In this document: positions 719 to 48,952 of the stretch, piece by piece
Numbering within the stretch: position 1 is the first letter of the stretch
How the letters are laid out: each line of letters opens with the position of its first letter
Assembly (NCBI GenBank): GCA_964510495.1
Contig: CAZECR010000001.1
Span: 3,781 to 67,780 of the forward strand
Length of the DNA stretch: 64,000 nt
Direction of reading: 5' to 3'
From: an uncultured Gammaproteobacteria bacterium
Lineage (GTDB): Bacteria > Patescibacteriota > Patescibacteriia > Magasanikbacterales > GWA2-37-8
Position numbers and translations under genes: made by a program
The notes under the pieces: model-generated
Databases searched by the model: none
What the model saw: the letters and a program-made list of their open reading frames with translations, nothing else
What the model was told of the DNA's origin: nothing

Positions 719-928
719 TTATTTTTTAGCAGCTGCTTTTTTCGCAACCTTTTTGGTAACATTTACCACCTGGCGTCCTTTATACATGCCACAGTTAGTG
801 CAAGCGCGGTGCGGAAGAATCGGCTGTTGGCACTTAGGACATTTTTGGATCGTCATTTCGGTAAGCGCGAAATGAGCTGCGCGTTTGCGTTTGTCAGAGG
901 ATGTCCGACGATGACCGGGTAAACCCAT
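719..928 (-). CDS. rpmF: 50S ribosomal protein L32 (bL32)
   Basis: 69-aa ORF with RRTSSDKRKRAAHFAL and the Zn-ribbon C-x2-C...C-x2-C, plus a Lys-rich tail. Confidence 0.85.
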   Translation of the reverse strand: MGLPGHRRTSSDKRKRAAHFALTEMTIQKCPKCQQPILPHRACTNCGMYKGRQVVNVTKKVAKKAAAKK

Positions 929-1074
929 ACGGAGCTATTAGTAAGTAGATATTAGTAATTTGTACTAAAGTAGTATGACTATACACTAAATAAGCCAATT
1001 TGGCAAGAGAAAGGCTCTGAAGAGCCGAAATAATTGATTTTTAGCCTCTTCTCAGGTAGTATTGAGGAAATTAT

Positions 1075-2085
1075 ATGGAAATAGTGCTCGAAAACGATGC
1101 AAAGAACTGGAAAACTAACTCTTTTCCCCAAGCGTGGGAATGGGGTGACATTTTAATTACTGAAGGGAAGCTTGTAGAGCGCTTACGGGTTGTCGAAGGG
1201 GGTGTCACGCTCGCCCAGCTGCAGGTGGTATATAGTAGCCTGCCGTTTGGTTGGCAGTATGCTTTTTGCCCCAAAGGGCCAGTGTTCCCGGAAGGAACAA
1301 GGAACAAGCAACAAGGAACAAAAGTGCTTGAGGTGCTGGGTGCCTATTTGAAAAAAAAGAATTGTTTGTTTTTTAGGATAGAGCCGCAAGAAAGATCCGA
1401 GCTACAGGCTACAAGATACAAGCTGCAAACTTCGATTGACATTAATCCTCGCACTACTATAATTCTTGAGCTCGGCAAAACAGAAGAAAAACTGCTGGCT
1501 GCTATGCATCAAAAAACTCGGTATAATATTCGCTTGGCCGAAAAGAAAAATATACAAATAAGTTCAGAAAAAAACTACGAAACATTTATCGCTTTAATGA
1601 AAAAAACAGGGGAGCGCGACGGCTTTCGTTTGCATGAAGAAAAACATTATCGAGCGATTTTTGATTCGAAGCTTAGCTTGCAACTTACGGCGGTGTATGA
1701 AGAAAAAGATATTGCGACAGCAGTGTTTGTTGGTTCAGGAAATACTTTCACGTATCTCTATGGAGCATCTGATCACGAATATCGCTCGCTTATGGCGCCG
1801 TATTTACTCCAGTGGGAGGGGGTTAAACTTGGAAAAAAATTGGGGTATGAAAAATATGATTTTTTTGGGATTGCTCCGAGTTCGAAGGAACAAGGAACAA
1901 GGAACAAGGAACAATCGGATAATGATTATGCATATGATCCGAAGCATCAGTATGGTGGTGTCACTCGCTTCAAACTTGGTTTTGGGGGGAGTGTGCTTGA
2001 GCTGCCGGGTACATTTGACTTGATTCTTCAGCCGACGAAGTATAGGATATATCAGCTTCTGCGAAAGCTTCGCAGATTAATCTAA
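1075..2085 (+). CDS. FemAB-family peptidyl/aminoacyl transferase (peptidoglycan interpeptide bridge formation, FemX-like)
   Basis: 336 aa. The RBS GAGGA lies 6 nt upstream. Motifs YNIRLAEKK, ETFIALMKKTGERDGF, LYGASDHEYRSLMAPYLLQWEGVKLGKKLGYEKYDFFGI match the FemAB/FemX family consensus. Confidence 0.8.
   Translation: MEIVLENDAKNWKTNSFPQAWEWGDILITEGKLVERLRVVEGGVTLAQLQVVYSSLPFGWQYAFCPKGPVFPEGTRNKQQGTKVLEVLGAYLKKKNCLFFRIEPQERSELQATRYKLQTSIDINPRTTIILELGKTEEKLLAAMHQKTRYNIRLAEKKNIQISSEKNYETFIALMKKTGERDGFRLHEEKHYRAIFDSKLSLQLTAVYEEKDIATAVFVGSGNTFTYLYGASDHEYRSLMAPYLLQWEGVKLGKKLGYEKYDFFGIAPSSKEQGTRNKEQSDNDYAYDPKHQYGGVTRFKLGFGGSVLELPGTFDLILQPTKYRIYQLLRKLRRLI
1294..1321 (+). repeat. Heptanucleotide tandem repeat (GGAACAA)x4, one unit GCAACAA, inside the FemAB CDS
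   Basis: Read directly: ggaacaa ggaacaa gcaacaa ggaacaa. It encodes ...EGTRNKQQGTK... Confidence 0.9.
1887..1914 (+). repeat. Heptanucleotide tandem repeat (GGAACAA)x4, perfect, inside the same FemAB CDS
   Basis: Read directly: four perfect GGAACAA units, encoding ...KEQGTRNKEQ... It has the same unit and orientation as the 1294-1321 tract, 593 bp upstream. Confidence 0.9.
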
Positions 2086-2169
2086 AAAAATGTTCTCGTC
2101 GTTTAATGGATAGGACACTAGCCTCCGAAGCTGGTAATGCGCGTTCGATTCGCGCCGAGAACACGCGTA

Positions 2170-2193
2170 AGACAGGTCTAAGGCCTGTTTTTA
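2170..2193 (+). terminator. Weak intrinsic terminator after the FemAB gene
   Basis: Hairpin acagg-tctaagg-cctgt followed by tttttaattttt. Confidence 0.4.
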
Positions 2194-2279
2194 ATTTTTG
2201 TTTAAAAGGGTTGACAGATGAACGCAACTATGTCAGTATTTTTTTTACACAAAACCAGCAGAAGCTGGAAGGAGGAACC

Positions 2280-3164
2280 GTGAAACGTTTGTTGATGATG
2301 TTGACTGTGCTTTTCGCGCTCGGCGCTGTGCCTGCAGTGGCACAGACACCGCCGCCGGGTGCAGGGAGGTCGATCCTACTTCCCCCGAATGCGCCGACCA
2401 CTTCACCGGCTTGTCCGACGTGTACCGAGCAGGGGCGCACGGGCGTGCTCGAGGTGGGTAGGCGCTGGGAGGTACGCAGATCTGATTCGGCCAGAAAGGC
2501 GTATCGCGCCACATTCGGTCGGACCGTTTTCAACGATCCGACCCGGCCCGGGGCGTTAGTGCCGACAGCCCGGTGCAGTACCTGTGGGAACCTTCACCAG
2601 ATGCCCGGTGTCAAGGAGTTCAAAAAGGCACTGTCAGGTGATCAGCTTCGCGAACAGCAGCGTGTAGCCGCCGACAGGGCGGCAGAGGCAGGCGTAGGCC
2701 GTGATGGCCCTGCGTCTCAGGGCGGTCGCGTCCAAGCAGCCGACCCTCAACGAAACGCCTTCCGCCAGCGGGTTGCTGCAACGCGCGACCCGGCTCCGCC
2801 ACGCCTGCTTCTCGCTCCGCCCCCGGGTGGAGGTGGTGGTCAGGGTGGAAGCAGCAGCGGGCTCCTTGGTGGAGGCCCGAGCGCTGGCAGCGGAAACAAC
2901 CAGGGTAACGATGGCACGAGCCAGCGACGAGCCCTGGTTGCCTACCCCGGCTGCCTCGGCGATTTTGGAGGACCGGGTAGAAGATCCTGCACCGGCGCCG
3001 AAGCGCTGAGCCGGGCAGCGGCGCCGCTCACCGTTGGCGCTGCCGTGGTGGGTAGTCTTGCGACAGGTGGCACTGCACCCGCAGGCGCTCTTCTCCTGCG
3101 GGCGGCTGGCCAGCGCGCTGTCCAAGCCGGCGCCGTACTCGCCCCCGCGCTCGCCGGTCGCTAA
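2280..3164 (+). CDS. Secreted protein, paralog A, with a conserved C-terminal Cys-loop/Gly-Ala-rich module; GC-rich
   Basis: GTG start with RBS GGAGGAA. Signal peptide VKRLLMMLTVLFALGAVPAVAQ. The C-terminus YPGCLGDFGGPGRRSCTGAEALSRAAAPLTVGAAVV...LLRAAGQRAVQAG is shared with the 3480-4319 product. GC content is far above the flanks. Confidence 0.6.
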   Translation: MKRLLMMLTVLFALGAVPAVAQTPPPGAGRSILLPPNAPTTSPACPTCTEQGRTGVLEVGRRWEVRRSDSARKAYRATFGRTVFNDPTRPGALVPTARCSTCGNLHQMPGVKEFKKALSGDQLREQQRVAADRAAEAGVGRDGPASQGGRVQAADPQRNAFRQRVAATRDPAPPRLLLAPPPGGGGGQGGSSSGLLGGGPSAGSGNNQGNDGTSQRRALVAYPGCLGDFGGPGRRSCTGAEALSRAAAPLTVGAAVVGSLATGGTAPAGALLLRAAGQRAVQAGAVLAPALAGR

Positions 3165-3200
3165 CACGACCATCAGCAACTAACTTTTGTTCTTTACCAG

Positions 3201-3289
3201 CGGCCCTCTACAATTATCTCCCCAAGGTCGCCCTATTCTGTATTCAAGTGTCTTGAAACTAGAGTAGGGAGGGATTTGACTTTGGGGAG
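3201..3289. repeat. Conserved ~85-nt imperfect palindromic element, copy 1, downstream of paralog A
   Basis: ctccccaaggtcgccctattctgtattcaa...ttgaaactagagtagggagggatttgactttggggag. A second copy is at 4350-4437. Confidence 0.7.
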
Positions 3290-3335
3290 CGTAATGAGTT
3301 TATGGATTGCTTTGCTGAAAAAATACTACTTAATT

Positions 3336-3366
3336 AGCCCGGTATCTATCGGGCTTTTTATTTTTT
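3336..3366 (+). terminator. Intrinsic terminator
   Basis: agccc-ggtatctatc-gggct followed by ttttatttttt. Confidence 0.6.
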
Positions 3367-3479
3367 AAAATAGTGATTTAAGGTGCTTATAGTGTACATA
3401 GTGTTGACTTTTCTGTCTGGAGCTGCTAGCCTTGCTGCACAATTTTAACTCACTCGGTTCTGAGTGAGAGGTGGAAGAC

Positions 3480-4319
3480 ATGAAAAACATGTACATTGTT
3501 AGCGTGTTGCTGTTTTTGACGGCAATAGCCAACGCTCAGCCAAGGCCCAGGCTTGATCCAACCGCCGTTGATCGAGGTAGAATCAGGCTTGAGGGTCAAC
3601 GGCAGTTTCAGGCTGATACGGTAAAACAAGCAAGGAGGTTCGGCGAGTGGCAAGCGAAGATCGCCGATAAATATCCTGGCCAGCCTTTGCTCACACCGCG
3701 CGAATTACAGGTCGAGTCTCGTAAAGCGGCAAAACAGGATATTAGGGCACAAAAGTTACAGACTGCTAAGGCAAAGGGGTATGTGCCAGAGCTTTCGGAA
3801 ACGGATCAACTGGTGCGAGCTCTGGGTAAGATCCCTGAGGTCAGCGAGGTCTTTGATGAAGAGTTGTTGAGAGCAAAAGGTAAGCGCAAGCTTAAGACGA
3901 CTTTTCACCGGGACAGTCTCACACCTCTTCCTGTTCCTGCTGGCCGCCCTATCCTTCCACAGCTTGGTAGCTCGCCCCCTCCGTCGCGCCCTCTGGTGGC
4001 AACTCCTCTTCTGGGAGGACGTCCAGCGGTGGCTCCAAGTGCCCCCAACCTGGGTACCACGGATACTCGTCCTCGCGTGGGACCGTTCGTTTCCTACCCC
4101 AACTGCCTCGGCGACAGCGGCAATCCGCTCCGCAGATCCTGCGGCGCCGGTGAAGCGCTACGGAGGGCAGCAGCCCCGCTCACACTCGGTGCGGCTGTCG
4201 TGTCTGGTGTTGCTCCGGCAACAGCTGCCGGAGTTGGAACCGGAGTTCTGCTGCGAGCAGCTGGCCAGCGTGCTGCCCAAGCCGCACCCGCACTTGCTCC
4301 ACTGCTGGGAAGCCAGTAG
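3480..4319 (+). CDS. Secreted protein, paralog B, with the same C-terminal module; GC-rich
   Basis: RBS GAGGTGG. Signal peptide MKNMYIVSVLLFLTAIANAQ. The C-terminus YPNCLGDSGNPLRRSCGAGEALRRAAAPLTLGAAVV...LLRAAGQRAAQAA aligns with paralog A. Confidence 0.6.
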   Translation: MKNMYIVSVLLFLTAIANAQPRPRLDPTAVDRGRIRLEGQRQFQADTVKQARRFGEWQAKIADKYPGQPLLTPRELQVESRKAAKQDIRAQKLQTAKAKGYVPELSETDQLVRALGKIPEVSEVFDEELLRAKGKRKLKTTFHRDSLTPLPVPAGRPILPQLGSSPPPSRPLVATPLLGGRPAVAPSAPNLGTTDTRPRVGPFVSYPNCLGDSGNPLRRSCGAGEALRRAAAPLTLGAAVVSGVAPATAAGVGTGVLLRAAGQRAAQAAPALAPLLGSQ

Positions 4320-4349
4320 GCTCGGAAATAAATAGTCCTTGTCATTGGG

Positions 4350-4437
4350 TGGCCTACACTATTTATCTCCTCAAGGTCGCCCTATTCTGTATTCAATTTT
4401 TTTGAAGATAGAATAGGGAGGGACTGACTTTGAGGAG
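4350..4437. repeat. Conserved ~85-nt imperfect palindromic element, copy 2, downstream of paralog B
   Basis: ctcctcaaggtcgccctattctgtattcaa...gaagatagaatagggagggactgactttgaggag. The stem carries a compensatory change relative to copy 1 (ctccccaa/ttggggag versus ctcctcaa/ttgaggag). Confidence 0.7.
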
Positions 4438-4450
4438 AAAAAATAAAAAA

Positions 4451-4477
4451 CATCTCAGCAATCCGAGATGTTTTTTA
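4451..4477 (+). terminator. Intrinsic terminator
   Basis: catctc-agcaatcc-gagatg followed by tttttt. An A-tract lies upstream. Confidence 0.6.
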
Positions 4478-4548
4478 AAAGATTTTTATTATACTCGTCT
4501 TGACAGAAGATCTTTTTTAATCTAGTAGTACCCTATAGGAGGATGGAA

Positions 4549-5124
4549 ATGCAAAGCGAAGCTCAGGTTGACGCAGTAGTCACCACAAAGAAAACGTCTC
4601 AAAGACGTTTGCGAAAAGTAGAAAAACAAGGACAAGAATTTCGCAAACTATCGCGCCTTCCTCAAGGCGTCTTCTGTTCTGACTACCGGGGTCGCGAAGC
4701 GTGTTTTAAAGCGCTGCGTGATCAAACAAAGAAGCCTGCTGGCCTCGTGTACGTGGTTATGGGAACCGGTGCCGAGAATGCTTCGGTGGTGATCTGGAAT
4801 CACCGTGGTCTGCGATTGCTCGGTCAGTGGTCACTCAAAAGCAGCACGGCCAAAGGTGTGCTGTTCGAGGTGCTCCCTGCTTACACCCGGAACTGGAAGC
4901 TGGCTTGGATAAGCTACAACAAAGAGAAAGTTGTGAGTGGCTATTCAGTTGCTACAGCCGGTGGCATCAAGCGCTACTACCCGCTCAGCAGCGAGCAAAC
5001 TGGCGAAGTGGTGTCCGACAGCTGGATAGGGCTCAAGCCTGATAGAGCCCCCGGGTTCTGGGACGTCGAACGTGTGCTCCGGCCTTTTCGTCGCAGTTTT
5101 CCTCGCCCGCTCACCCCCGCCTAA
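4549..5124 (+). CDS. Hypothetical protein (GC-rich island)
   Basis: RBS TAGGAGG 6 nt upstream of ATG 4549. 191 aa with no recognisable motif. Composition matches the neighbouring GC-rich genes. Confidence 0.5.
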   Translation: MQSEAQVDAVVTTKKTSQRRLRKVEKQGQEFRKLSRLPQGVFCSDYRGREACFKALRDQTKKPAGLVYVVMGTGAENASVVIWNHRGLRLLGQWSLKSSTAKGVLFEVLPAYTRNWKLAWISYNKEKVVSGYSVATAGGIKRYYPLSSEQTGEVVSDSWIGLKPDRAPGFWDVERVLRPFRRSFPRPLTPA

Positions 5125-5162
5125 TTCACCCCCCCCGCCTTCCTTCCTTCTTCTCCTTTCCT

Positions 5163-5207
5163 AAAAAAAATCACCCCGGTATTTTCGGGGTGATTTTATT
5201 TTTTTAA
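5163..5207. terminator. Bidirectional intrinsic terminator between the convergent hypothetical gene and gyrA
   Basis: A-tract, hairpin tcaccccg-gtattttc-ggggtga, then T-tract. Confidence 0.6.
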
Positions 5208-7669
5208 ATTAATGTTACACTCACGACTTTATCATCTTCTTCTTTGAATCGCATGAGGCGAACTCCTTGTGTGGCACGTCCGCTCGACGGAATTGATTTA
5301 AACGGCATGCGAATGACTTGGCCTTTGGCGGACATCATGACGATATCGCGTTCATCAGCTTTGGCTGTATCGATGGCGCTGCCATGAATGACGAAGCCGG
5401 TTTTTTCACTGACTTTGGCGGTCTTAATACCACTGCCACCACGACCCTGTACTTTATAGCTCGCAATTTCAGTGAGCTTACCGAGTCCATTTTCACCGAT
5501 CGTCAAAAATTCAATACTTTTATTTTTAGGGTCAACCGTATCCATGCCAATAACTTCGTCGTTACCGTGGAGGCGGATACCGCGCACACCGCTTGCAGTG
5601 CGACCCATGGAGCGGGCATCGCTTTCTTTGAAACGAATAGCCTGACCCTCTTTGGTAGCGATCATGATGTCGTCAGAGCCGCTCGACGGGCGAACCCATT
5701 CCATGCTGTCGTCGAGACGAAGTTTGAGCGCGATAAGACCGTTGCGGCGAACATTGGCATAATCTTCAAGAGCGGTCTTTTTAATAAGCCCTTTTCTGGT
5801 TACCATAACCAAATATTTGAGGTCAGTCAGGTCGGTCATCGAAAGCATGGTGCTTACTTTTTCATTTGGCGCAAGCTGCAAGAAGTTAACCATGGCCTGG
5901 CCTTTGGCGGTGCGACTGCCCTGAGGTATTTCGTAGGCAGACAATTGGAAGACGCGGCCACGGTTAGTGAAGAAGAGAATATTGTCGTGGGTATTGGTAG
6001 TGAGAAGCTGCTCAACGGATTCTTCTTCTTTAGTGGTTACACCGATAACACCCTTACCGCCGCGAGATTGTTGGCGGAAGGTATCAGGAGGTAAGCGTTT
6101 GATATAGCCATCGGTCGTGGTCATGATGATGGTTGGCTCATTAGGAATGAGGTCTTCAACTGTGAAGTCTTTGATTCCATGAGCGATAATCTGGGTGCGG
6201 CGTTCCTCACCATATTTTGCTTTAATTTCTTCAGTTTCAGTTTTAACAATACCCAAGATTTTAGCTTCCGAAGCAAGGATTGCTTCGAGCTCTTTGATGA
6301 TCGCTTTTTTCTCGGCTAACTCGTCTTCAACTTTTTGGCGTTCCAGGTTAGCGAGCTGTTGCAAACGCATTTCCAAAATGGCTGTTGCCTGGCGGTCGCT
6401 AAATTTAAATTTGTCCATCAGTTCAACTTTTGCTTCGTCTTTGTCTTTGGAAGCGCGAATTGTTTTGATAACAAGATCAATTTTATCAAGCGCGATTTTG
6501 AGACCTTCCAAAATATGGGCGCGCTCTTTGTTTTTATTCAAGTCAAATTCCGTGCGAGCGCGAATAACGACGCGGCGGTGCTTGATAAACTCTTCGAGAA
6601 CATTTTTAATGTTGAGGACGCGTGGTTGAATACCGTCAACCAGCGCGAGCATATTTACGTGAAACGTGGTCTGAAGCGCAGTTAGTTTGAATAATTGGTT
6701 GAGAATTTTTTTCGGGTAAGAATCTTTTTTGAGATCAACCACCACACGAACACCGTCTTTGTTGGATTCGTCGCGCAGGTCCTTAATGCCTTCGATTTTT
6801 TTCTCTTGTACCAGTGTTGCAATTTTTTCGATCATTTCGGCTTTGTTGACCTGGTAGGGGACTTCGGTGACAATGATCTGGAATTGTCCGGCTTTAGTTT
6901 CTTTAATATCAGCTTTTGCACGCATCACAATACCGCCGCGGCCTGTAACATAGGCCGAAAGAATGTCTTTTTTGTTATAAATAATACCGCCAGTTGGAAA
7001 GTCCGGTCCTTTGATGACCTCGGCTAAGTCTTCGACAGTAGCTTCTGGATTTTCAATCAGTTTAATAACACCGTCACAAAGTTCGTTCAGGTTGTGGGGT
7101 GGAATACTGGTCGCCATACCAACAGCGATGCCCATCGTACCATTGAGGAGCAGGTTCGGAATTTTGGTTGGTAAAACGGTTGGCTCAATATGCGAACCGT
7201 CGTAGTTTGGAATAAATCGAACTGTTTCTTTTTCAATATCAAGCAGCATTTCTTCGGCTGCAGCCGTAAGCTTCGCTTCGGTATAACGCATAGCAGCCGC
7301 TGCGTCGCCGTCCATGGAGCCAAAGTTTCCTTGGCCGTTCACCAATTGATGGCGCATGGAAAAATCCTGAGCCATACGGACGAGTGAGTCGTAGATGGCG
7401 CTGTCACCGTGAGGGTGGTACTTGGCCATCACCTCACCGACTACATTGGCGGATTTACGATACTTCGCGTTATGGCGTAAACCAATTTTCCACATGGCGT
7501 AGAGAATACGGCGGTGTACAGGTTTAAGTCCGTCGCGAACGTCGGGGAGGGCGCGCGAAACGATAACGCTCATGGCGTATTCGAGGTACGACTGTTTAAT
7601 TTCGTCAACGATAGCAGCGGGCGTGATCTTGCCGGCTTCCTGGACAATCAATTTGGGTTGCTGGGACAT
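5204..7669 (-). CDS. gyrA: DNA gyrase subunit A
   Basis: 821 aa. N-terminal ...[15 protein letters not shown]..., the active-site Tyr region, and C-terminal beta-pinwheel repeats. Confidence 0.95.
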
Positions 7670-7688
7670 ACGGGGTACTATTCAATAG

Positions 7689-8231
7689 CTAATGTTTGGT
7701 AGTAGTAGAGTTTGGTGTTGTTGGGGTTGAGCTGGCAGTGGTAGTGCTGTTTGAGTTTGCAACAATCAGCGCAAGCGCTTCTTTAATTTTTTCCTGGGGT
7801 GATGGTGTGCTCGTTGTTTGATTTCTGGGAGCAAAAGCGTTCTGCCAGTTTTTTTGATTTGCCTCAATGAGTTCTTGCTCCGGTGATCCGGTCCAACGGA
7901 ACGAACTGATCTGAAGTTTGAGCGACCAGCCCCATAGTACACCAATGATGATCATAAACGAAATGACGCCCACCCAGAGGTAGCGCTTAGCGCTCCGGTT
8001 ATGGGCAACAAAACGTTCATAGGATCGAATCTCCTCCGGAGTCGCTTTTTCAGATTCAAAGGATGCTTGCTGGGCAGTTTGTTTTTTAGGTTCTTTAAAG
8101 TTTGCCTCATTAAAAACCAGGCTCGGCATTGGTTTTGCTGCGCTTTTACGCATGGAGCGTTTTGGTTTGGCAGCAGTTTCAGAAATAATTTTTTTTCGTG
8201 GCATACGAATGAGCGCATGAGGCGGGCTCAA
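7689..8231 (-). CDS. Hypothetical single-pass membrane protein
   Basis: 180-aa ORF with one TM segment (WVGVISFMIIIGVLWGW) and a Thr/Ser-rich C-terminus. It sits between the MBL hydrolase gene and gyrA on the same strand. The start may be the internal MPRKK. Confidence 0.45.
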   Translation of the reverse strand: MSPPHALIRMPRKKIISETAAKPKRSMRKSAAKPMPSLVFNEANFKEPKKQTAQQASFESEKATPEEIRSYERFVAHNRSAKRYLWVGVISFMIIIGVLWGWSLKLQISSFRWTGSPEQELIEANQKNWQNAFAPRNQTTSTPSPQEKIKEALALIVANSNSTTTASSTPTTPNSTTTKH

Positions 8232-8302
8232 GGAGAAAAAGAAACACGGGTGTATCCGTTGCTTCTTGAGCCCCCTTACTGTACGTTCCCGTTTGGTGCG
8301 TA

Positions 8303-8869
8303 TTAAATATTTTTTTCCAAGACCATGAGTTGCATATCTTCTTGAGGTAGGTCCTTGGCTTTGAGAATAACTTTCTTATCGGTTACCGCTGCTTTGAGTC
8401 CGCTCGCCTTAATAAAATCTTCCACGGGTTTTACCTCAGGGTCGCTGTCGGAGGCGTACCCCATAGGGATAACAACACGAGGTTCAAGTTCGTTAATAAC
8501 TTCCGCTGCCGCGCTTGGGGAAAGATATTTTTTTTCACCACCAACGCCAAGGGCAAGGATATCAATTTTACCCAGTTTTTCAACCAGATCAGCTGAAAGC
8601 TGTTCTTGAATGGCGCCAAGGTGCACGAGCGACATGCCTTCGGCAGTAACTTTAAAAATAACGGTCTCGTTTGGGCCGGGCCAGGCACTAATAAGGACGC
8701 CTTTGATGTCGAATTCGCCAAGGGTGCTGATGATAAAAGGGTCTTGCGAGAGGGTGGCGCTATTGTCTTCGCGGTGCGAGTACAGGGCGACGCTGGGGCT
8801 AAAACTACGAGGAAAATCACCCTTTTCAGGTTTGTACGGATCAAAGAGAATAACGACGTCTTCATCCAT
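8303..8869 (-). CDS. MBL-fold metal-dependent hydrolase (COG2220-like)
   Basis: Start moved to MDEDVVILFDPYKPE at 8869. Motifs VHLGAIQ, DILALGVGG and VIPMGY are typical of small beta-lactamase-fold hydrolases. Confidence 0.6.
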   Translation of the reverse strand: MDEDVVILFDPYKPEKGDFPRSFSPSVALYSHREDNSATLSQDPFIISTLGEFDIKGVLISAWPGPNETVIFKVTAEGMSLVHLGAIQEQLSADLVEKLGKIDILALGVGGEKKYLSPSAAAEVINELEPRVVIPMGYASDSDPEVKPVEDFIKASGLKAAVTDKKVILKAKDLPQEDMQLMVLEKNI

Positions 8870-9101
8870 TTGTTTGGTCTGTAATTTAAGACAGGTTTGA
8901 CCGAGCCAGGAGAGGTGCATACAGTAAATGTGGTTAAAGAGTGCGGTTATTCTAGCATACCGTTTCAGGTGCCGCAAGCCTTGACAGCGAAGCAAAACAG
9001 TGTTACTTTACGTCTATACATATAAGTACTTGAAGCAGCTCCATTTTAGCGAGCAGCACTCGACTTAGGCCTAGCCAAGCGGGATAAACAGTATTTTTTT
9101 T

Positions 9102-10262
9102 ATGTCCGATAACGATAAAACAGCTAAAAAACAAGACTTTAAGGCCCTCCTTCAGAGCCATTTTACTGAAATCCCAAAAGTTGGGGCGATTGTTAAGGGT
9201 AAGGTACTTTCGGTAGATAAAGGCGAAATTCACATTGACGTTGAAGGCATGACAACCGGTGTCGTTCGTGGCCGTGAACTTTTTGCTGAATCTCGCGAGT
9301 ACTCTGGGCTCCGTGTTAACGACGAAGTCGAAGCGACTGTGGTTGAACTTGAAAATGAAAACTGTGAAATGGAACTCTCGTTCCGCATTGCCGGCTACCA
9401 GAAGGCTTGGGACGGCATGATTAAACTCATGAAAGACGGCGTTACTATTAAAGGTAAAGTTGTGTCGGCCAATAAAGGTGGTCTCATGATGCAGGTTGAA
9501 GCCCTCGCTGGTTTTATGCCAGTGTCGCAGCTTAACCCAGACCACTACCCACGCGTTACCGGCGGCGACAAGAATCGCATTCTCGATAAACTACGTGAAA
9601 TTGTTGGTCAGGAACTCGAAGTAAAAGTTATCGATGTTGATGAGAAAGAAGAAAAACTCATCGTCTCGGAACGCGCAGTTTGGGAAGATTCTCAGAAAGC
9701 GGTACTCGAATCCTACAAAGTTGGTGACGTTGTTAACGGCGAAATCAGCGCCCTTACTTCATTTGGTGCATTCATCAAATTTGGTGAAGGACTCGAAGGC
9801 CTGGTACACATTTCCGAAATCGCTTGGCAGCGTATTGATCACCCGAAAGATGTTGTAAAGGTAGGGGACAAGGTCAAAGCCCAAATTATCCAGCTCGATC
9901 ACTCCAAGATTTATCTCTCCATCAAACGCCTCGTGGACGATCCATGGAAGAGCGTTAAGGATAAATACAAACAGGGTGAAGTTGTTAAAGGTAAAATCCT
10001 TAAGATCGAACCGTTCGGTCTCATGGTTGGCCTCGACAAGGACATCCATGGCTTGGCTCATATTTCAGAACTCTCCGATACTCCACTGGCCAATATTAAC
10101 GAACACTTCAAAATTGGACAGGAAATGGACTTCGAAATCATGTCGCTCGAACCAGCTGAACACCGTCTTGGCCTCAAGGCTGTTGGTGTGAAAGGCAAAA
10201 GCGGACGCAAAGTAGCTCCAGCTAAAACTGAAACTCCAGAAGCAGAAAAAGCTGCTGAGTAA
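9102..10262 (+). CDS. rpsA: 30S ribosomal protein S1
   Basis: 386 aa with four S1 domains (repeated G-x-V-x-G-x-V...FGAFIK..GLEGLVHISE motifs). Confidence 0.9.
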   Translation: MSDNDKTAKKQDFKALLQSHFTEIPKVGAIVKGKVLSVDKGEIHIDVEGMTTGVVRGRELFAESREYSGLRVNDEVEATVVELENENCEMELSFRIAGYQKAWDGMIKLMKDGVTIKGKVVSANKGGLMMQVEALAGFMPVSQLNPDHYPRVTGGDKNRILDKLREIVGQELEVKVIDVDEKEEKLIVSERAVWEDSQKAVLESYKVGDVVNGEISALTSFGAFIKFGEGLEGLVHISEIAWQRIDHPKDVVKVGDKVKAQIIQLDHSKIYLSIKRLVDDPWKSVKDKYKQGEVVKGKILKIEPFGLMVGLDKDIHGLAHISELSDTPLANINEHFKIGQEMDFEIMSLEPAEHRLGLKAVGVKGKSGRKVAPAKTETPEAEKAAE

Positions 10263-10278
10263 AAGATGCAATTAAAAA

Positions 10279-10311
10279 ATACCCGCTCGATTGTGAGCGG
10301 GTGTTTTTTTA
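10279..10311. terminator. Bidirectional intrinsic terminator after rpsA
   Basis: aaaaaat-acccgctcg-attg-tgagcgggt-ttttttt. Confidence 0.6.
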
Positions 10312-12192
10312 GAGTGAGAATTGTGACTCAGGGGAATTTACCTTTGGTGCTTTGGGAGGTTTGCTTGTTTTTTGTGGAAGGTCGTCGTACTGGGTTTCTC
10401 CCAGAGCTTTGGATATTTCTTCAGGAGCCATAGTTATTGTTTTTTCTGATGCTCTGCGCTCAGATAAGTTTCTACGTAATTTGTCGATATTTTCTTGTGA
10501 CTTTTTAAGTGATTCAGCGGTATCTTTTAAATTTTGCGCTGCATCTTTCTTTAGATTTTCCTTTTCAGTTTCGTTGAGGGGTCTTGTGTAAAGCGGGAAT
10601 TCGCGAAGATGTCTGTCTAACTGATTTCTTCGTTCTTGTAATTCTTCACGCATGATTTTTTCAAATCCAGGGAAAGCCATAGTACGGATGTTGCTATAAG
10701 CAATCTGTCTGCTTAGGGTTAAGCCGGCGTCTTGAATGTTTAAACGCGATTCATTATCTAATTTTTCGCCCGGTGTTAATTCACCAAATTGCGGATTGTT
10801 TATCTGATCTTGCATTGCCTTTTTTTCACGCGCAATTTTATCGCTCAGCGTATCCCAGTTATGTTGTTTTTCAATCGGAATGTTCTCAGATAATTTTTGT
10901 AATTTTGCTTTTTGGACTCTTTGGAACAAGGCCCGTAAAATAGCCTCCAGGTTATCAGGGTGAACTTTAGTGGGATGTGCTTCAAGTGTGTCACGCATCC
11001 ATTCTATTTCGTTGGCAGTTAACCATAATTCTTCAGCAATTTTTTTTGTATCAGCTGTGCTGGTAACTACTTCTTTTAATTTCTGGTATTGTTCTTGGGT
11101 GATGTTATAGAAATTAATTGTGGCGTCAGGACTGTATACTCGGAATTCACCCATGAGCTGGTGTCTTTCCTGGTATGACTTTTGTTTTTCGGGGGTATTT
11201 AAAGTATCAACATCTGCCAATTCTGGTTTGTTAAAATGTTCTTGGATTTTAAGCTGTCTACAAAGTACGGTTAAGTGAGAAAGTTGGTCCGAATACGTTT
11301 CAGTAGGATATTTTTTCCGGTACTCCTGCCATTTTTTTTGCAGAATATTTGTATTTTCTTCGTTAAAAACACTAAAAGAATTATTTTTATTTCCACGTTC
11401 TAGTTGTCTTAGGAGCGCTTCAAGAGTTTCCTTTCCTAGATCAAGATCGTGTTGAATTTTATCGGCATTTTGTTTTCGTTTCCTTTTCTCGATAAAAATT
11501 TTATATATTTCCTCTAAATCAGCAAGGTCGTTACGCAAGCTGTATCCCTTTTGATGATTATTTTTCCATATTTCATGAAGTTGCTTTTGTTCGGTAGAAT
11601 TTAAAATTTTTTCTTCTTGAGGGGATAGCATTTCGCCTTGGGCGATATGAAGAATAGCAAGCATCGCTTCTGGGACAAGCAGGGTATGAACTTTTTTTGG
11701 ACCCAATGCTTCGGCTGTGCGATGCATCGATAATTCAGGCGGTTCTTGAGTGAGTAAATCGTATAGCTCATCCACCGTAGTTGCTCGCCAAAGAATATGT
11801 TTTTTTGGTAGAGCTTGCTCGGAAAGGGTTTCTGGTTTGGCTGGTTTGTAAGGCTGTGTTGCTGTCCTTTCTTTTTTTGGTTCTGAAAGTTCTATGGGCT
11901 GATTCTCTTTTTGAGTAATATGGTGATAGATACCTTTCAGTCTAATGATCTGGTCCGCTATACTGTCATCCGGAAATTGTTCGCGGTATTCTTCCCATTT
12001 TGTGATGAGCATCTCTTCGTCTTGGGCTCCGAGTGAGATGCACGCTCCCGGCATCCCTTCTCTACGTTCCAAATTTTTATGCAGCTCAAAAAGCTCCTTC
12101 CGGCTGAGGTCCCTAGGCTGCTGGGAGCTGTCGAGTCTATTTGTTGCCGCGTAGGCTTCAGAAGAATGCGCGCCACGTCGAAAAGTATGCAT
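10309..12192 (-). CDS. Hypothetical Lys/Glu-rich, predicted coiled-coil protein with internal repeats
   Basis: 627-aa ORF. It carries the repeated motif TKWEEYREQFPDDSIADQIIRLKG / KKWQEYRKKYPTETYSDQLSHLTVL. The start codon is uncertain (alternative MPGACIS...). Confidence 0.5.
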   Translation of the reverse strand: MHTFRRGAHSSEAYAATNRLDSSQQPRDLSRKELFELHKNLERREGMPGACISLGAQDEEMLITKWEEYREQFPDDSIADQIIRLKGIYHHITQKENQPIELSEPKKERTATQPYKPAKPETLSEQALPKKHILWRATTVDELYDLLTQEPPELSMHRTAEALGPKKVHTLLVPEAMLAILHIAQGEMLSPQEEKILNSTEQKQLHEIWKNNHQKGYSLRNDLADLEEIYKIFIEKRKRKQNADKIQHDLDLGKETLEALLRQLERGNKNNSFSVFNEENTNILQKKWQEYRKKYPTETYSDQLSHLTVLCRQLKIQEHFNKPELADVDTLNTPEKQKSYQERHQLMGEFRVYSPDATINFYNITQEQYQKLKEVVTSTADTKKIAEELWLTANEIEWMRDTLEAHPTKVHPDNLEAILRALFQRVQKAKLQKLSENIPIEKQHNWDTLSDKIAREKKAMQDQINNPQFGELTPGEKLDNESRLNIQDAGLTLSRQIAYSNIRTMAFPGFEKIMREELQERRNQLDRHLREFPLYTRPLNETEKENLKKDAAQNLKDTAESLKKSQENIDKLRRNLSERRASEKTITMAPEEISKALGETQYDDLPQKTSKPPKAPKVNSPESQFSL

Positions 12193-12370
12193 AAAGAATT
12201 TTTATTATAGTATAACATATTTGCTGTAAACAGCCCATGCAAGCACATTTCAAGCGTTTTGTCAACCCAATTGAGCTTTATTTTGGCTAAGATATGCCCT
12301 TCTGTACGCCTTGATTTCTTGGCTAAAAGCCTGTATGCTAGCTGAACGGTATAATTCATTAGTCTTATTT

Positions 12371-14239
12371 ATGAAAGATTTTTTAAAGAATTTTTTACTC
12401 ATTTTTGGGGCATTACTCCTGATTGCTGGTGGTCTTAGCCTTGTTAAATGGAATAGCGCGCAGAAGCCGGAGATTGTTGGTGTTAATCAGTTGGCCGAAG
12501 AGATTAATGCTGGCAAGGTTAAGAAGATCGTGGTTCAAGGTGATACGCTCAGTATTGAGCTTAACGATGCCAAAGCTGCTCCGCAGCAAGTGAAAAAAGA
12601 AGCTCAGGAATCGTTTGGCGACATCATGAAAAATTATGGCGTAACCGATGAAGCCCGTGCAAAATTACAGGTAGAAATTAAAGATCAGAGTTCGTGGAAG
12701 TTTTGGCTGGCCAATTTGGTATTGCCGGCTTTGCCGGTACTCATGTTGCTCGGGTTTCTGTACTTCATGACTCGCGGCATGCAGGGAATGAACAATAAAG
12801 CCATGGGTTTTGGACAGAGCAATCCGCGTCAGGTGAAGCCAGACGACAAAGACAAGAAAACATTTAAAGATGTTGCTGGCGCTAAAGAAGCCAAAGAAGA
12901 ACTCGTGGAAATTGTCGATTTTTTGAAAGATCCTAAAAAGTTTGCGGAAATTGGGGCAAAGATTCCTAAAGGCGTCTTGCTGACAGGTACCCCGGGTACC
13001 GGTAAAACTTTACTTGCGAAAGCGGTGGCTGGTGAAGCCGATGTGCCGTTTTTTCACATGAGTGGTTCTGAGTTTGTAGAAATGTTTGTGGGTGTTGGTG
13101 CGAGCCGTGTGCGCGACCTCTTTGCTAAAGCAAAAAAGGCTGCCCCAGCTATTATCTTTATCGATGAAATTGATGCGGTCGGTCGTAGGCGTGGTGCTGG
13201 TATGGGTGGTGGACATGACGAACGCGAACAAACCCTCAACCAGATTTTAGTTGAGATGGATGGTTTTGAACCTAATCTCGGTGTTATTATTATGGCGGCT
13301 ACGAACCGTCCCGACGTGCTTGATCCGGCACTCCTTCGCCCAGGTCGTTTTGATCGCCGAGTGACAATCGATATGCCAGATATTCGCGACCGCGAAGAAA
13401 TTTTGAAGATTCATGCGATTGGTAAACCTTTTGCGCCCGAGGTTTCAATGCGTAAAGTAGCCGAACGTACTCCAGGATTCTCGGGTGCTGATCTCGCCAA
13501 TCTTTTGAATGAAGCGGCGATTTTAACGGTGCGCAAAGGATTGAAAGTAATTACTGAAAACGAAATTTTACCAAGTATTGAAAAAGTCTTACTCGGGCCT
13601 GAACGCAAGAGCCGGGTTATTTCGGATCATGATAAAAAAGTTACTGCCTACCACGAAGCAGGGCATGCGATCGTTGGGTACCTCTTACCAAATTGTGACC
13701 CTGTTCGCAAAGTGTCGATTATTTCGCGCGGTTCAGCTGGCGGGTATACGCTCAAAATGCCGGCCGAAGACAAGCATTATCATACGCTTGCTCAATTCCG
13801 CGACGATCTGGCAATGTCGCTCGGCGGCTACGTCGTCGAAAAAATGGTCTTTGGTGACGGTAATATTTCAACCGGCCCATCAAGCGATTTGCGCAACGCT
13901 ACCAAGCTCGCTCGCGGCATGGTGACGCAGTATGGTATGAGTACGAAACTGGGACCACGTACCTTCGGTGAAAGTGAAGGCATGGTGTTCCTTGGCGGTG
14001 AATCACATGCCGAACGGGATTATAGTGATAAGACGGCCGAGATTATTGATCAGGAAGTGCTGGCGCTTATCTCAGAAGCCGAAACTCGAGCGCGCGACGT
14101 AATGACCAAAAATAAAGCAGCCATGGAACGTATGGTCGCCGCACTTATTGAAAAAGAAACGATTGAACAAGACGAGATTAAAGCAATCATGGGTGAGCCG
14201 CCAAAGAAATCAGAAGTTGTTTTGGAAAATCAAGCGTAA
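12371..14239 (+). CDS. ftsH: ATP-dependent zinc metalloprotease FtsH
   Basis: N-terminal TM segments, Walker [12 protein letters not shown] region, and the HEAGHA zinc motif. The start is set at MKDFLKN (12371). Confidence 0.95.
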
Positions 14240-14252
14240 AATCTGATAACAT

Positions 14253-14288
14253 AAAATCCCGTATTCGATTGAACGCGGGATTTTTTAA
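14253..14288 (+). terminator. Intrinsic terminator after ftsH
   Basis: aatcccg-tattcgattgaa-cgggatt followed by ttttt. Confidence 0.6.
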
Positions 14289-14494
14289 ATAGTGAGGAGA
14301 GCGGCCCGCCAGCTAGCGAGATCCGTTAAGCGAATACGGGTCTCTTGTCTGCTCGAATGGTAGTACTAATCGCCCTGTTTTTTAATGGAGAAATGTGTGG
14401 TGGTGGCAAGGGCGTGTCAATATGTAACTACCTGTAAAAGTGTGGTATACTACTGGTACTCAAAAATTATTTATATTTTTTAATCGCGATTGGT

Positions 14495-35105: not shown

Positions 35106-35149
35106 TCAGTTTTTAGGAGTAACGACAAAACCTTCCCGAAGGAAGGTTT

Positions 35150-35615
35150 TGCGCCATTATTATAAGCCGAATTTTGTTCCCATCTTGCGAGGGGCGATAA
35201 TCATTTCTCTGGTTCGGCCATTGCTGGCCGAATCTAGCGAGCGAACTTTTCGCGCCACTTTTACTGCGTCTCTCGGGCGCTCGTAACAGGCACGCTGCTC
35301 TTGCACCAGATAGGGTTTAGCACTGCTCTATTTCGCAATAGAGCGAGTATGGTAGCTTTGATCTCGAGAATCAGAACCTCCATACACTTTTCACCTTTTG
35401 TCCCGACGAAAGCCTGCCTATCAGCAGGTACACGGGATTAGTATTGTCTCTGTGCCACTGTCCCGCTCCGAAACTTTACAGCTCGGAGGGTGGGGGTTAC
35501 CCACTATCCTTGTCCATTCTTCAAAAACCGGCCAGGTGGCCTATTTTTGGATCAAATGGGGTGTTCGGACTTTCCTCTCCGGTTTAAGGGAGCGATTATC
35601 CATAATGGAAGCTGC
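35150..35615 (-). ncRNA. rnpB: RNase P RNA (bacterial type), masked in the ORF track by a spurious 76-aa ORF
   Basis: On the minus strand: GAGGAAAGTCCGAAC (5' P4; E. coli has GAGGAAAGUCCGGGC), GGTAACCCCCACCC, AAAAGGTGAAA, ...ACAAAATTCGGCTTAT (3' P4; E. coli has ACAGAACCCGGCUUAUCGG). The two P4 halves are in the correct order, about 400 nt apart. The 5' (ccattat) and 3' (ataatgg) ends can pair as P1. Boundaries are ±15 nt. Confidence 0.7.
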
Positions 35616-45111: not shown

Positions 45112-45161
45112 GGCTGTACCTCCGCCATATGCTGTTGAGTTATCGGGGAGTTTGGTCTCAT

Positions 45162-45180
45162 CTATCAAAAAAATTGATAG
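45162..45180. promoter_or_regulatory. Perfect inverted repeat CTATCAA-N5-TTGATAG upstream of the first OPT gene (candidate operator)
   Basis: Read directly. It lies 50 bp upstream of the start codon. Confidence 0.35.
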
Positions 45181-45220
45181 GCGATTCCGTTTCTCACCGC
45201 TAACATTGTAAAAGGGCTTT

Positions 45221-45245
45221 GTTACAGTTGTATGAAAACTGTAAC
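45221..45245. promoter_or_regulatory. Perfect inverted repeat GTTACAGTT-N7-AACTGTAAC (candidate operator)
   Basis: Read directly, in the same intergenic region. Confidence 0.35.
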
Positions 45246-45321
45246 ACCTGAACGTAGCAAAAAATAGAGCAAATGTCAAGATAGGTTGTGGGTATAGTTT
45301 GATAGCATTGTAAAACAAAAA

Positions 45322-48837: not shown

Positions 48838-48952
48838 AATTTCTCAAGTATTTTCAAAAAAATAACTAAGAAATGAAGGCCGGAAATTCGCTGGTGCGTT
48901 TTCCGACCTGGGCGCTGTTAGGTTGTGCGCCGAGACGGGCGTCGAGGCCCGG

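Follow-up and report, generated by a model that had tools for sequence, protein, structure and literature searches.

Several described systems resemble parts of the locus reported here. C-terminal sorting signals of the LPXTG and PEP-CTERM type combine a motif, a span and a basic cluster, and signals such as PEP-CTERM, GlyGly-CTERM, PGF-CTERM, MYXO-CTERM and the T9SS CTD recur on many proteins. Pairs of exported proteins are also found among the glycine-zipper two-peptide bacteriocins, e.g. Cdz of Caulobacter. At the RNA level, 3'-UTR stabilizer stem-loops and REP-type hairpins protect the upstream mRNA from 3' exonucleases. Finally, strain-specific surface genes can be collected in flexible islands, which often adjoin tRNA genes, as in the cell-wall-associated island of Haloquadratum walsbyi (PMC4535781).

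The DNA that we analysed, a stretch of 64 kb that we refer to as the window, comes from an uncultured member of Candidatus Magasanikbacteria (Patescibacteria/CPR). Between a tRNA-Arg(CCG) gene and the 3' end of gyrA it carries two adjacent genes, p1 and p2. Our best reading, which we infer from the sequence, is that they are an old tandem duplicate of an orphan exported protein that is probably associated with the cell envelope. The features of the gap and its borders are as follows.

2092..2164, + strand: tRNA-Arg(CCG), conserved, anchoring the variable gap on its left side (ARAGORN and Rfam)
2169..2191, + strand: terminator-like hairpin 3' of the tRNA, the last stretch alignable with the closest relative
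2280..3164, + strand: p1, orphan exported protein, 294 aa
2940..3161, + strand: C-terminal module of p1 (YPGC-LGDFGGPGRRS-C, uncharged Ala/Gly-rich stretch, LLRAAGQRA, Ala/Pro/Leu tail)
2952-2990, + strand: Cys225-Cys237 loop, inside the p1 module
3015-3098, + strand: uncharged Ala/Gly-rich stretch (aa 246-273), inside the p1 module
3218..3289, + strand: 3'-UTR hairpin copy 1, following p1, a stem of 28 base pairs whose 3' side has a 7-nt bulge
3336..3366, + strand: intrinsic terminator of p1, a GC stem followed by a T run
3480..4319, + strand: p2, orphan exported protein, 279 aa
4095..4316, + strand: C-terminal module of p2 (Cys209-Cys221 loop and uncharged stretch)
4104-4142, + strand: Cys209-Cys221 loop, inside the p2 module
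4170-4256, + strand: uncharged stretch (aa 231-259), inside the p2 module
4367..4437, + strand: 3'-UTR hairpin copy 2, following p2
4444..4477, + strand: intrinsic terminator of p2, palindromic and readable as a terminator on both strands
4543..5124, + strand: orf3, third strain-specific ORF of the gap, 193 aa, 54% GC
5167..5197, + strand: terminator used by both orf3 and gyrA, which converge on it; it marks where the variable gap ends on the right

Both genes are found where an earlier note on this DNA had placed two paralogous secreted-protein genes (2280-3164 and 3480-4319, + strand), and both products begin with a predicted Sec-type signal peptide ending in A-x-A: MKRLLMMLTVLFALGAVPAVA in p1 (aa 1-22, cleaved before Q) and MKNMYIVSVLLFLTAIANA in p2 (aa 1-19, likewise cleaved before Q). 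Translation of p1 starts at a GTG located 7 nt after GGAGGA and that of p2 at an ATG, with ribosome-binding sites present for both. A longer call for p1 (352 aa, from an ATG at 2106) is unlikely, as it overlaps the tRNA. The signal peptide of p1 is followed by a basic N-terminal region with two CxxC pairs (C45/C48 and C99/C102), a Pro/Gly linker (aa 171-220) and the C-terminal module (aa 221-294); p2 has a helical basic N-terminal region, a disordered Pro-rich linker (aa 157-205) and the module (aa 206-279). The two proteins carry a net basic charge, and Ala, Gly, Pro and Arg account for half of the residues of p1. In the AlphaFold2 models of both, the N-terminus is helical, the middle disordered and the C-terminus helical at low confidence; pLDDT is 46-58, with no alignment depth. 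A Foldseek comparison of these low-confidence models with PDB entries found nothing similar. The 64-kb window also encodes a DsbA-like oxidoreductase that is membrane-anchored.

Neither protein has a recognizable relative in the collections that we searched. An exhaustive HMMER profile search of 1.84 billion representative proteins, a check that had been proposed for the module, returned solely p1 and p2, and a word-seeded search of a 5.8 billion-sequence collection with the module and the full proteins gave self-matches only; p1 is a singleton in a 15-billion-protein collection. Peptide-pattern scans for the module in genome, metagenome and viral contigs recovered no other instance, and the window holds no third copy. 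There is no match for p1 or p2 in Pfam, NCBIfam, PHROGs or PADLOC, and a PDB sequence search produced nothing beyond weak chance similarity to designed PPR repeats. On these comparisons, p1 and p2 appear to be a strain-specific orphan gene pair with no homologues in the collections searched, and not the bearers of a new sorting signal.

What the two proteins have in common is their C-terminus. The module (~75 aa) is 58% identical between them. BLASTP aligns p1 with p2 only over the C-terminal ~125 aa (49% identity, E 2e-16; tblastn 1e-24), and the alignment of the last 74 aa has a score of 203, whereas composition-preserving shuffles average 43 and reach 203 in 0 of 500 cases. Similarity in the Pro/Gly linker is marginal (6 of 500 shuffles reach its score), and the mature N-terminal regions compare at chance, with a score of 30 versus a mean of 30.4 for composition-preserving shuffles, in agreement with the earlier description of them as unrelated. 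The module consensus quoted at that time is right except at one trivial position, and the module does indeed match no named domain in Pfam or NCBIfam. The remark that this is not the architecture of polymorphic toxins also holds, since those join a conserved N-terminal delivery region to variable C-terminal toxin domains and the polarity here is opposite: the N-termini are unrelated and the C-termini conserved.

The module evolves under purifying selection. Its dN/dS is ~0.3 (~0.32) with dS ~1.0, third codon positions hold 39 of the 80 differences between the copies, and of the six frames it is the annotated one in which the copies score best against each other. The earlier note had weighed the possibility that the similarity merely reflects a recent tandem duplication of a gene whose tail occurs nowhere else. 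We did find no other instance of the tail in the collections searched, but with dS ~1 between the copies the duplication is old.

A conserved hairpin after the stop codon of both genes is a new observation of this study. Each gene has a ~72-nt, 28-bp hairpin 3' of the stop codon and then its own terminator. Copy 1 has a folding energy of -42 kcal/mol (z -5.6) and is stronger on the + strand, and copy 2 has one of -41 kcal/mol (z -8.6). The copies are 89% identical, against 44% identity at synonymous sites, and are better conserved than the coding sequence; a diverged spacer lies between the hairpin and the conserved coding part, and inter-copy similarity stops at the 3' end of the hairpin. Relative to copy 1, copy 2 has one compensatory C-G to U-A change and one G.U to A-U change, a covariation that amounts to a single compensatory pair in two sequences. 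Four G.U pairs favour the sense strand.

The hairpins belong to no family that we could recognize. With Rfam 15, only the tRNA and RNase P pass the gathering score over the window, and the sub-threshold matches of the hairpins to microRNA-precursor models are those of generic hairpins. Pattern scans of genome, metagenome and viral collections recovered no true copies; the six hits of a looser viral scan lie in coding sequence or are not hairpins, and their number is within chance. The 64 kb contain two hairpin copies, and the core motif is enriched neither in the window nor in 1.34 Mb of relatives. We rejected a dispersed palindromic repeat of the REP/MITE type on this copy number and on the lack of a genome-like spread in the window or relatives. 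An integron cassette with an attC site was rejected too: the arms are without RYYYAAC/GTTRRRY cores, p1 and p2 are each equipped with a promoter-like box and a terminator, and there is no integrase. A 24-codon ORF after hairpin 1 is not kept after hairpin 2 and was set aside for this reason.

The core of the region is an old tandem duplication of one whole transcription unit, comprising promoter, gene, 3'-UTR hairpin and terminator; the duplication period is about 1.15-1.2 kb. The products of both copies are exported by Sec, basic and for the most part disordered, with a high content of Ala, Gly, Pro and Arg. After the duplication, the exposed N-terminal halves diverged beyond recognition or were replaced, and the C-terminal ~75 aa, with a 13-residue Cys-Cys loop, an uncharged Ala/Gly-rich stretch, the basic LLRAAGQRA and a short amphipathic tail, stayed constrained, as did the 28-bp hairpin 3' of the stop codon. 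The sequence shows that the genes are real, carry export signals, lie in a hot spot and stem from an old duplication, that they are under purifying selection and that the hairpin is conserved; the envelope association, the disulfide and the part played by the hairpin are predictions, and to the explanation as a whole we give about an even chance. Following export and signal-peptide cleavage, the module may hold two different N-terminal 'heads' at the cell envelope, by weak association with the membrane or wall or by self-association, and a disulfide is predicted to close the Cys-Cys loop. The hairpin would act on the sense-strand RNA, most simply as a 3' barrier that stabilizes the mRNA ahead of the true terminator.

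The genes lie in a hot spot. The order gyrA, gap, tRNA-Arg, femAB, rpmF, nusB is conserved among relatives, and tRNA-Arg(CCG) adjoins femAB in about 25 of them too. The size of the gap ranges from 52 bp to 6.3 kb. The closest relative, L001 (98% GyrA identity), is without the p1/p2 segment, which is likewise missing from L002 and from all 80 related loci; the gap of the nearest relatives is occupied by a different ORF or empty. Another relative has, at the same site and in the same orientation, an unrelated tandem pair of small secreted proteins. Variable DNA begins at about 2169..2191, because the last stretch alignable with the closest relative ends there. The interval from about 2192 to 5203 is thus a strain-specific accessory segment, in what is probably a recombination-prone gap that extends from tRNA-Arg(CCG) to the gyrA 3' end.

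The only ORFs of the gap are p1, p2 and orf3, with no family or PHROG match, and no integrase, recombinase or transposase was found near p1 and p2. The product of orf3 has no signal peptide and no match to Pfam, NCBIfam, PHROGs or PADLOC families, and the ORF is absent from all 80 related loci; a search for viral or phage relatives found none. Like a tRNA island, the segment adjoins a tRNA gene and is absent from close relatives. An integrase-mediated, tRNA-targeting island or prophage remnant was nevertheless rejected, as there is no integrase and no direct repeat derived from the tRNA 3' end at the far border of the segment. A 16-nt A/T-rich inverted repeat at the gap borders is merely a matter of similar ends of femAB and gyrA. 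The femAB-tRNA-p1 junction is not chimeric, because an independent assembly of SRR12762304 reproduces window positions 902-2972 at 100% identity; this confirmation applies to the left junction, the right-hand one (4.3-5.1 kb) lying outside its coverage. Logan contigs were obtained with the femAB and gyrA sequences. A literature search on the locus or sample found nothing specific.

Among the alternatives, the one that survives best, unlikely as it is, holds that p1 and p2 are released effectors whose Ala/Gly-rich C-terminus is membrane-active or aggregating like a glycine zipper, with orf3 as a possible partner or immunity gene. Two adjacent paralogues with a third strain-specific gene would suit such a role, as would net basic proteins from a strain-specific locus. 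The uncharged stretch of p2 even has a small-xxx-small periodicity that can be read directly from its sequence, but such runs are expected by chance in a sequence so rich in Ala and Gly. Neither a glycine-zipper nor a bacteriocin family is matched, orf3 is without the membrane segment typical of immunity proteins, and p1 and p2 are long and mostly disordered rather than peptide-like.

It is distinctly unlikely that the hairpin is the end of a mobile or recombining cassette, through which secreted-protein genes would be shuffled between intergenic hot spots and the module and hairpin grafted together. Such a boundary would fit the end of inter-copy similarity at the 3' end of the hairpin. Three relatives have, in another variable gap, lipoprotein genes that are GC-rich and Cys-rich and are followed by a hairpin sharing the core TCGCCCTAYTCTGT...ARAGTAGG; in a reciprocal model search, hairpin 2 was the best match in the window. 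However, these three loci are orthologous and add only a single instance, the score of hairpin 1 is a mere 17 bits and falls in the range of ordinary terminators, and the motif recurs nowhere else in 1.4 Mb. The pattern scans above, the lack of a recombinase, integrase or transposase nearby and the lack of an attC-type GTTRRRY core also speak against it. That the module and the 3' hairpin form a transferable 3' cassette, with the hairpin as a DNA- or RNA-level recombination or mobility signal, we regard as improbable. If it were true, the cassette would let Magasanikbacteria graft an envelope-association tail onto different exported proteins, GC-rich secreted-protein genes would move between intergenic hot spots by means of it, and the hairpin behind the Cys-rich lipoprotein genes in the three other genomes would belong to another cassette member.

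The earlier note had favoured a sorting or anchoring signal, and this reading has become very improbable. The common C-terminus would be a new signal, made of an APLT(V/L)G-type motif, a hydrophobic span and a basic cluster, and would be recognized and processed by a sortase-, exosortase- or rhombosortase-like enzyme. It does have a tripartite look, with the conserved motif, 22-23 uncharged residues and then RAAGQR; it is the C-terminus of signal-peptide proteins with different N-termini; and femAB adjoins, in a lineage that builds a wall. A conserved C-terminus behind a variable N-terminus is not in itself a mark of a sorting signal. Instead of recurring on many proteins, the module has two carriers among the 1.84 billion representatives, PLTxG is restricted to p1 and p2 within the window, and no ORF there has an evident LPXTG-type end. 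That no named signal could be recognized was correct, as neither Pfam (including the Gram-positive anchor model) nor NCBIfam, nor any LPXTG, PEP-CTERM, GlyGly-CTERM, PGF-CTERM or other model, matches at E<=1. The span is preceded not by an LPXTG-type pentapeptide (LPXTG, LAXTG, LPXTA, NPQTN and the like) but by AAAPLT(V/L)G, where V or L separates T from G.

The tail had also been called hydrophobic, and here the comparison with real anchors is unfavourable. The uncharged stretch, 27-28 residues in all, has a Kyte-Doolittle hydropathy (KD) of 1.2-1.6, and its apparent insertion energies sum to +4.7 to +5.9 kcal/mol, or about +5, against -5.8 for the anchor of the DsbA-like protein and -0.7 kcal/mol for FtsH TM1 of the same genome (scale values approximate). 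It is a poor candidate for a transmembrane helix, and anchoring is therefore uncertain. The basic cluster is followed by 13-14 more, mostly uncharged residues to the C-terminus. No sortase-like ORF was seen in the window or the 80 related loci, where we found no TLxTC-type ORF and no phmmer match to an approximate S. aureus SrtA query, which is a weak test.

Very doubtful, too, is a recent acquisition from a high-GC organism such as an actinobacterial host, with the GC content as the donor's signature. The GC-rich island is there as described (62-71% along p1 and 51-66% along p2, versus ~44% for the window), and a donor could be argued from 58-67% GC against 44% in a segment that adjoins a tRNA and is missing from the relative with 98% GyrA identity. 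The proposed check of GC3 and codon usage gave a different picture: GC3 is 0.63 (p1), 0.52 (p2) and 0.56 (orf3) versus 0.42-0.49 in core genes, a mild excess, and the choice among synonymous codons resembles that of the host. It is GC1 and GC2 that are high in p1 and p2, because the proteins are rich in Ala, Gly, Pro and Arg. A foreign high-GC pattern in this window looks like that of the OPT transporter genes at 43-47.5 kb, with GC3 of 0.79 and normal GC1 and GC2. With GC3 at only 0.52-0.63, the suggested actinobacterial donor is therefore unsupported. Between the genes the DNA is AT-rich and has promoter-type boxes and terminators like those of the host, no homologue was detected in any organism, neither an integrase nor a tRNA-derived direct repeat is present, and the paralogues split long ago (dS ~1). 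Of the proposed horizontal acquisition, what stands is an accessory segment absent from the closest relatives, and what falls is the use of GC as evidence for a high-GC donor. We would add a word of caution: amino-acid composition alone can produce a 'GC-rich island' in a low-GC genome.

That p1 and p2 are spurious ORFs or an assembly artefact, as low-complexity singletons in GC-rich DNA that yields long ORFs in several frames might suggest, is scarcely credible given the third-position substitution pattern with dN/dS ~0.3, the annotated frame as the best of six, alternative-frame and antisense ORFs without a family match, ribosome-binding sites, signal peptides and terminators in place, and the identical independent assembly over 902-2972.

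CPR/Patescibacteria spend their lives attached to other microbes, by means of surface molecules about which hardly anything is known. Plausible candidates are exported proteins that are strain-specific and encoded in hot spots. The gap is one fixed site with different cargo per lineage, and twice the cargo is a tandem pair of exported proteins. By itself the locus is one more orphan gene pair, and its wider value is small unless the hairpin is part of a recurrent cassette.

How, then, does the locus compare with known systems? It shares with flexible islands a fixed site between conserved genes and a lineage-specific cargo, here including exported proteins. Set against examples such as that of Haloquadratum walsbyi (PMC4535781), it is very small, with 3 kb and three genes, and is without an integrase, an att repeat or recognizable surface-protein domains. 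The module resembles signals of the LPXTG and PEP-CTERM type in its position at the extreme C-terminus, the unrelated N-termini, the short motif, the uncharged stretch and the Arg cluster. It differs from the LPXTG, PEP-CTERM, GlyGly-CTERM and PGF-CTERM signals in having no LPXTG, PEP or GG motif and no model match, in a span that appears far too weakly hydrophobic, in the 13-14 extra residues after the basic cluster, in its two carriers and in that no processing enzyme was seen in the window or the 80 loci. As adjacent paralogous exported proteins with Ala/Gly-rich hydrophobic segments, p1 and p2 recall glycine-zipper two-peptide bacteriocins such as Cdz; unlike these they use Sec signal peptides rather than type I secretion, and they are much longer, disordered, and without a family match or a membrane immunity gene. 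The hairpins, in contrast to REP-type ones, exist in two copies with no genome-wide repeat and no Rfam family match. They are like 3'-UTR stabilizers in being long, stable hairpins between stop codon and terminator, conserved independently of the coding sequence and folding best on the sense strand.

The two orphan genes p1 and p2 most likely arose by old tandem duplication of a transcription unit for an exported protein, within the hot spot between tRNA-Arg(CCG) and gyrA. The interval spans 3,039 bp here (2165-5203) and also contains a third open reading frame, orf3.

Features of the tRNA-Arg(CCG)-gyrA gap
2280-3164, + strand: p1, GTG start 7 nt downstream of GGAGGA
3218-3289: hairpin 1, ~72 nt, about 50 nt past the p1 stop codon
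3480-4319, + strand: p2, ATG start
4367-4437: hairpin 2, ~72 nt, about 50 nt past the p2 stop codon
4543-5124, + strand: orf3, 193 aa, strain-specific, without signal peptide, no relatives detected

Both genes proposed in the earlier note are present on the + strand, and its description of two paralogues with unrelated N-terminal regions and a conserved C-terminus was borne out. In BLASTP, alignment is confined to the last ~125 residues of the two proteins (49% identity, E = 2e-16). Judged against composition-preserving shuffles, the last 74 residues, essentially the shared module, score 203 (shuffle mean 43), the Pro/Gly linker is marginal, and the mature N-terminal regions are exactly as similar as chance predicts. 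No third copy of the module lies within the window. Each gene has a ribosome-binding site, an upstream TTGAC(A/T) box and its own intrinsic terminator, and the N-terminus of each product is a classical Sec signal peptide that ends in A-x-A. A longer p1 from ATG-2106 (public gene call P0002, 352 aa), overlapping the tRNA gene, is unlikely. A sole weak PADLOC match of orf3 to JAB (E = 0.006 over 30 residues) is probably due to chance.

Third codon positions account for 39 of the 80 nucleotide differences between the modules (pS 0.56, dS ~1.0; pN 0.26; dN/dS ~0.32). Of the six frames compared, the annotated one scores highest between the copies, and alternative-frame ORFs match no family. The whole unit, with a period of ~1.15-1.2 kb and encoding a basic, largely disordered protein, would have been duplicated; the N-terminal halves would then have diverged or been replaced, with the module and the RNA hairpin remaining under selection.

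AlphaFold2 models, built with no alignment depth, reach a pLDDT of 58 for p2, with two long N-terminal helices (75-85) and residues 136-253 disordered, and 46 for p1. The C-terminal helices are weakly predicted in both, and a Foldseek search of the models against the PDB found no match. A disulfide closing the module's 13-residue Cys loop is plausible, since the window encodes a membrane-anchored DsbA-like thioredoxin oxidoreductase (62351-63106, +), and extracytoplasmic disulfides are plausible in this organism. The next gene (63113-64000, +) encodes a secreted protein bearing a domain like that of type IV secretion pilins. The module may hold two differing heads at the cell envelope, through weak membrane or wall association or self-association. 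A membrane-active C-terminal ‘warhead’ is an unlikely alternative. After APLT(V/L)G come 27-28 uncharged residues of Kyte-Doolittle hydropathy 1.2-1.6, and their summed apparent insertion energy is about +5 kcal/mol, as against -5.8 (DsbA-like protein) and -0.7 kcal/mol (FtsH TM1) for anchors in the same window on the same scale.

The newly found feature, and the one unusual detail of the locus, is the conserved 3'-UTR hairpin. Both copies form 28 base pairs with a 3'-side purine-rich bulge of 6-7 nt, fold at -42 (hairpin 1) and -41 kcal/mol (hairpin 2; z -5.6 and -8.6), and owe a greater stability as the sense strand to four G.U pairs. They share 89% identity and an invariant 24-mer, against only 44% identity at the synonymous sites of the adjoining genes and a diverged stop-to-hairpin spacer. 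Two changes preserve pairing, one a C-G to U-A double and one G.U to A-U. Similarity between the p1 and p2 copies stops at the hairpin's 3' end, behind which each has a distinct, unrelated terminator of canonical type. No Rfam family matches the hairpins, which would act at the mRNA 3' end. Elsewhere, the window carries a class A bacterial RNase P RNA (35147-35611, -; 126 bits).

A covariance model of the two hairpins recovered hairpins sharing their core in three related loci, and the motif recurs nowhere else in the sequences scanned.

Related long hairpin terminators (core TCGCCCTAYTCTGT...ARAGTAGG)
L044, 4705-4787
L042, 3495-3575
L037, 1292-1381
L036, 3847-3927 (possible further case)

The first three terminate Cys-rich lipoprotein genes (GC 57% vs 38-42%; GC3 0.70) in the gap that separates ftsH from a conserved membrane protein. 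The reciprocal search is only weakly supportive, ranking hairpin 2 top in the window (28 bits) and hairpin 1 among ordinary terminators (17 bits), and we regard the link as tentative. The ftsH gap is a second variable site of the lineage (window 14240-14494; L001 1103-1933), measuring 100-300 bp in many genomes, 2-5 kb in others, and about 1 kb in L001, L036, L037, L042 and L044, which have GC-rich inserts; in L001 it holds a GC-rich membrane ORF of 188 aa.

GyrA relatives place the genome in Candidatus Magasanikbacteria (Patescibacteria/CPR). Many GTDB representative MAGs among the loci compared (L001-L080) are titled ‘uncultured Gammaproteobacteria bacterium’, and one ‘Candidatus Udaeobacter’; they share 70-98% GyrA identity, and often local gene order, with named Magasanikbacteria MAGs, and these titles seem to be placeholders or mistaken taxonomy. 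About 25 relatives keep the order gyrA, gap, tRNA-Arg(CCG), femAB, rpmF, nusB, with gaps of 52 bp to 6.3 kb. In the closest, L001 (GyrA 98%, NusB 97%), the gap is 628 bp with a small unrelated ORF; in L002 (94%) it is 229 bp with no ORF; other relatives carry aminotransferase and transketolase genes. L005 has tandem small secreted paralogues (9234-9725 and 9890-10408, both -; 25% identity, E = 8e-8) in the same site and orientation as p1 and p2, unrelated to them and low in GC. In L003 (GyrA 85%), a gene for a 306-aa Cys-rich lipoprotein adjoins gyrA (12611-13531, +; GC 62%, GC3 0.71; no Pfam match). Alignability with relatives stops just 3' of the tRNA terminator, and the gyrA terminator differs too. 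The gap is a hot spot of recombination whose cargo is lineage-specific, and not a recognisable mobile element: the segment has no integrase, tRNA-derived direct repeat, phage or defence family. A mobile or recombining cassette marked by the hairpin, as the tentatively linked hairpins beside ftsH might suggest, is distinctly improbable.

The earlier note read the module's architecture as that of a sorting or anchoring signal, while finding it unlike any named one. The latter holds: Pfam and NCBIfam, including LPXTG, PEP-CTERM, GlyGly-CTERM and PGF-CTERM models, give no match at E<=1, and APLT(V/L)G is no LPXTG variant. The former is unsupported, given only two carriers, no model match and weak hydrophobicity. 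A module profile matched the two window proteins alone among 1.84 billion representative proteins; each full-length protein retrieved itself alone, as a one-member cluster seen on one 86.9-kb NCBI contig, and metagenome and viral contigs, scanned by pattern, gave no match. The module extends 13-14 residues beyond its basic cluster, and no sortase-like ORF occurs in the window or related loci, a weak test. A dedicated sorting system for two proteins found only side by side is not credible, and a true sorting signal is very unlikely. Of the alternative that the note had itself raised, a tail absent elsewhere and left by recent tandem duplication, the absence holds for the collections searched and the recency does not, the duplication being old.

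Base composition by codon position
p1: GC1 0.74, GC2 0.65, GC3 0.63
p2: GC1 0.68, GC2 0.54, GC3 0.52
Core genes: GC3 0.42-0.49
OPT transporters, 43.1-47.5 kb: GC1 and GC2 normal, GC3 0.79

High GC had also been read as horizontal acquisition, possibly from an actinobacterium; a high-GC donor is not supported by GC3 and codon usage relative to core genes. Ala, Gly, Arg and Pro account for 50% of p1, the choice among synonymous codons for Ala, Gly, Thr and Val is that of the host, the segment's intergenic stretches are AT-rich, and the GC content is mostly not a donor signature. No homologues were detected in any organism searched, nothing supports an actinobacterial origin, and recent acquisition from a high-GC donor is as improbable as a true sorting signal. 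A much stronger candidate for such an acquisition is the adjacent pair of OPT-family oligopeptide transporter genes (43108-45318 and 45497-47506, both -; PF03169), which illustrates how foreign high-GC DNA appears in this genome. A 300-bp patch of 70% GC (48900-49200) holds an 82-aa ORF (48953-49201, -) whose N-terminus resembles a signal peptide and whose body is of low complexity and rich in K/T/G/S; its weak tblastn match to the p2 Pro-rich linker (E = 4e-4) is probably compositional.

An artefact is the least probable explanation of all: a Logan contig of run SRR12762304 is 100% identical over 902-2972, which rules out a chimeric assembly at the femAB-tRNA-p1 join, and a second spans 5139-12618, independent assemblies thus stopping at 2972 and resuming at 5139. 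The earlier note's observation was correct, and its sorting-signal and donor readings were not sustained. The locus holds a pair of strain-specific orphan genes of a well-known general kind: exported accessory proteins at a variable chromosomal site.
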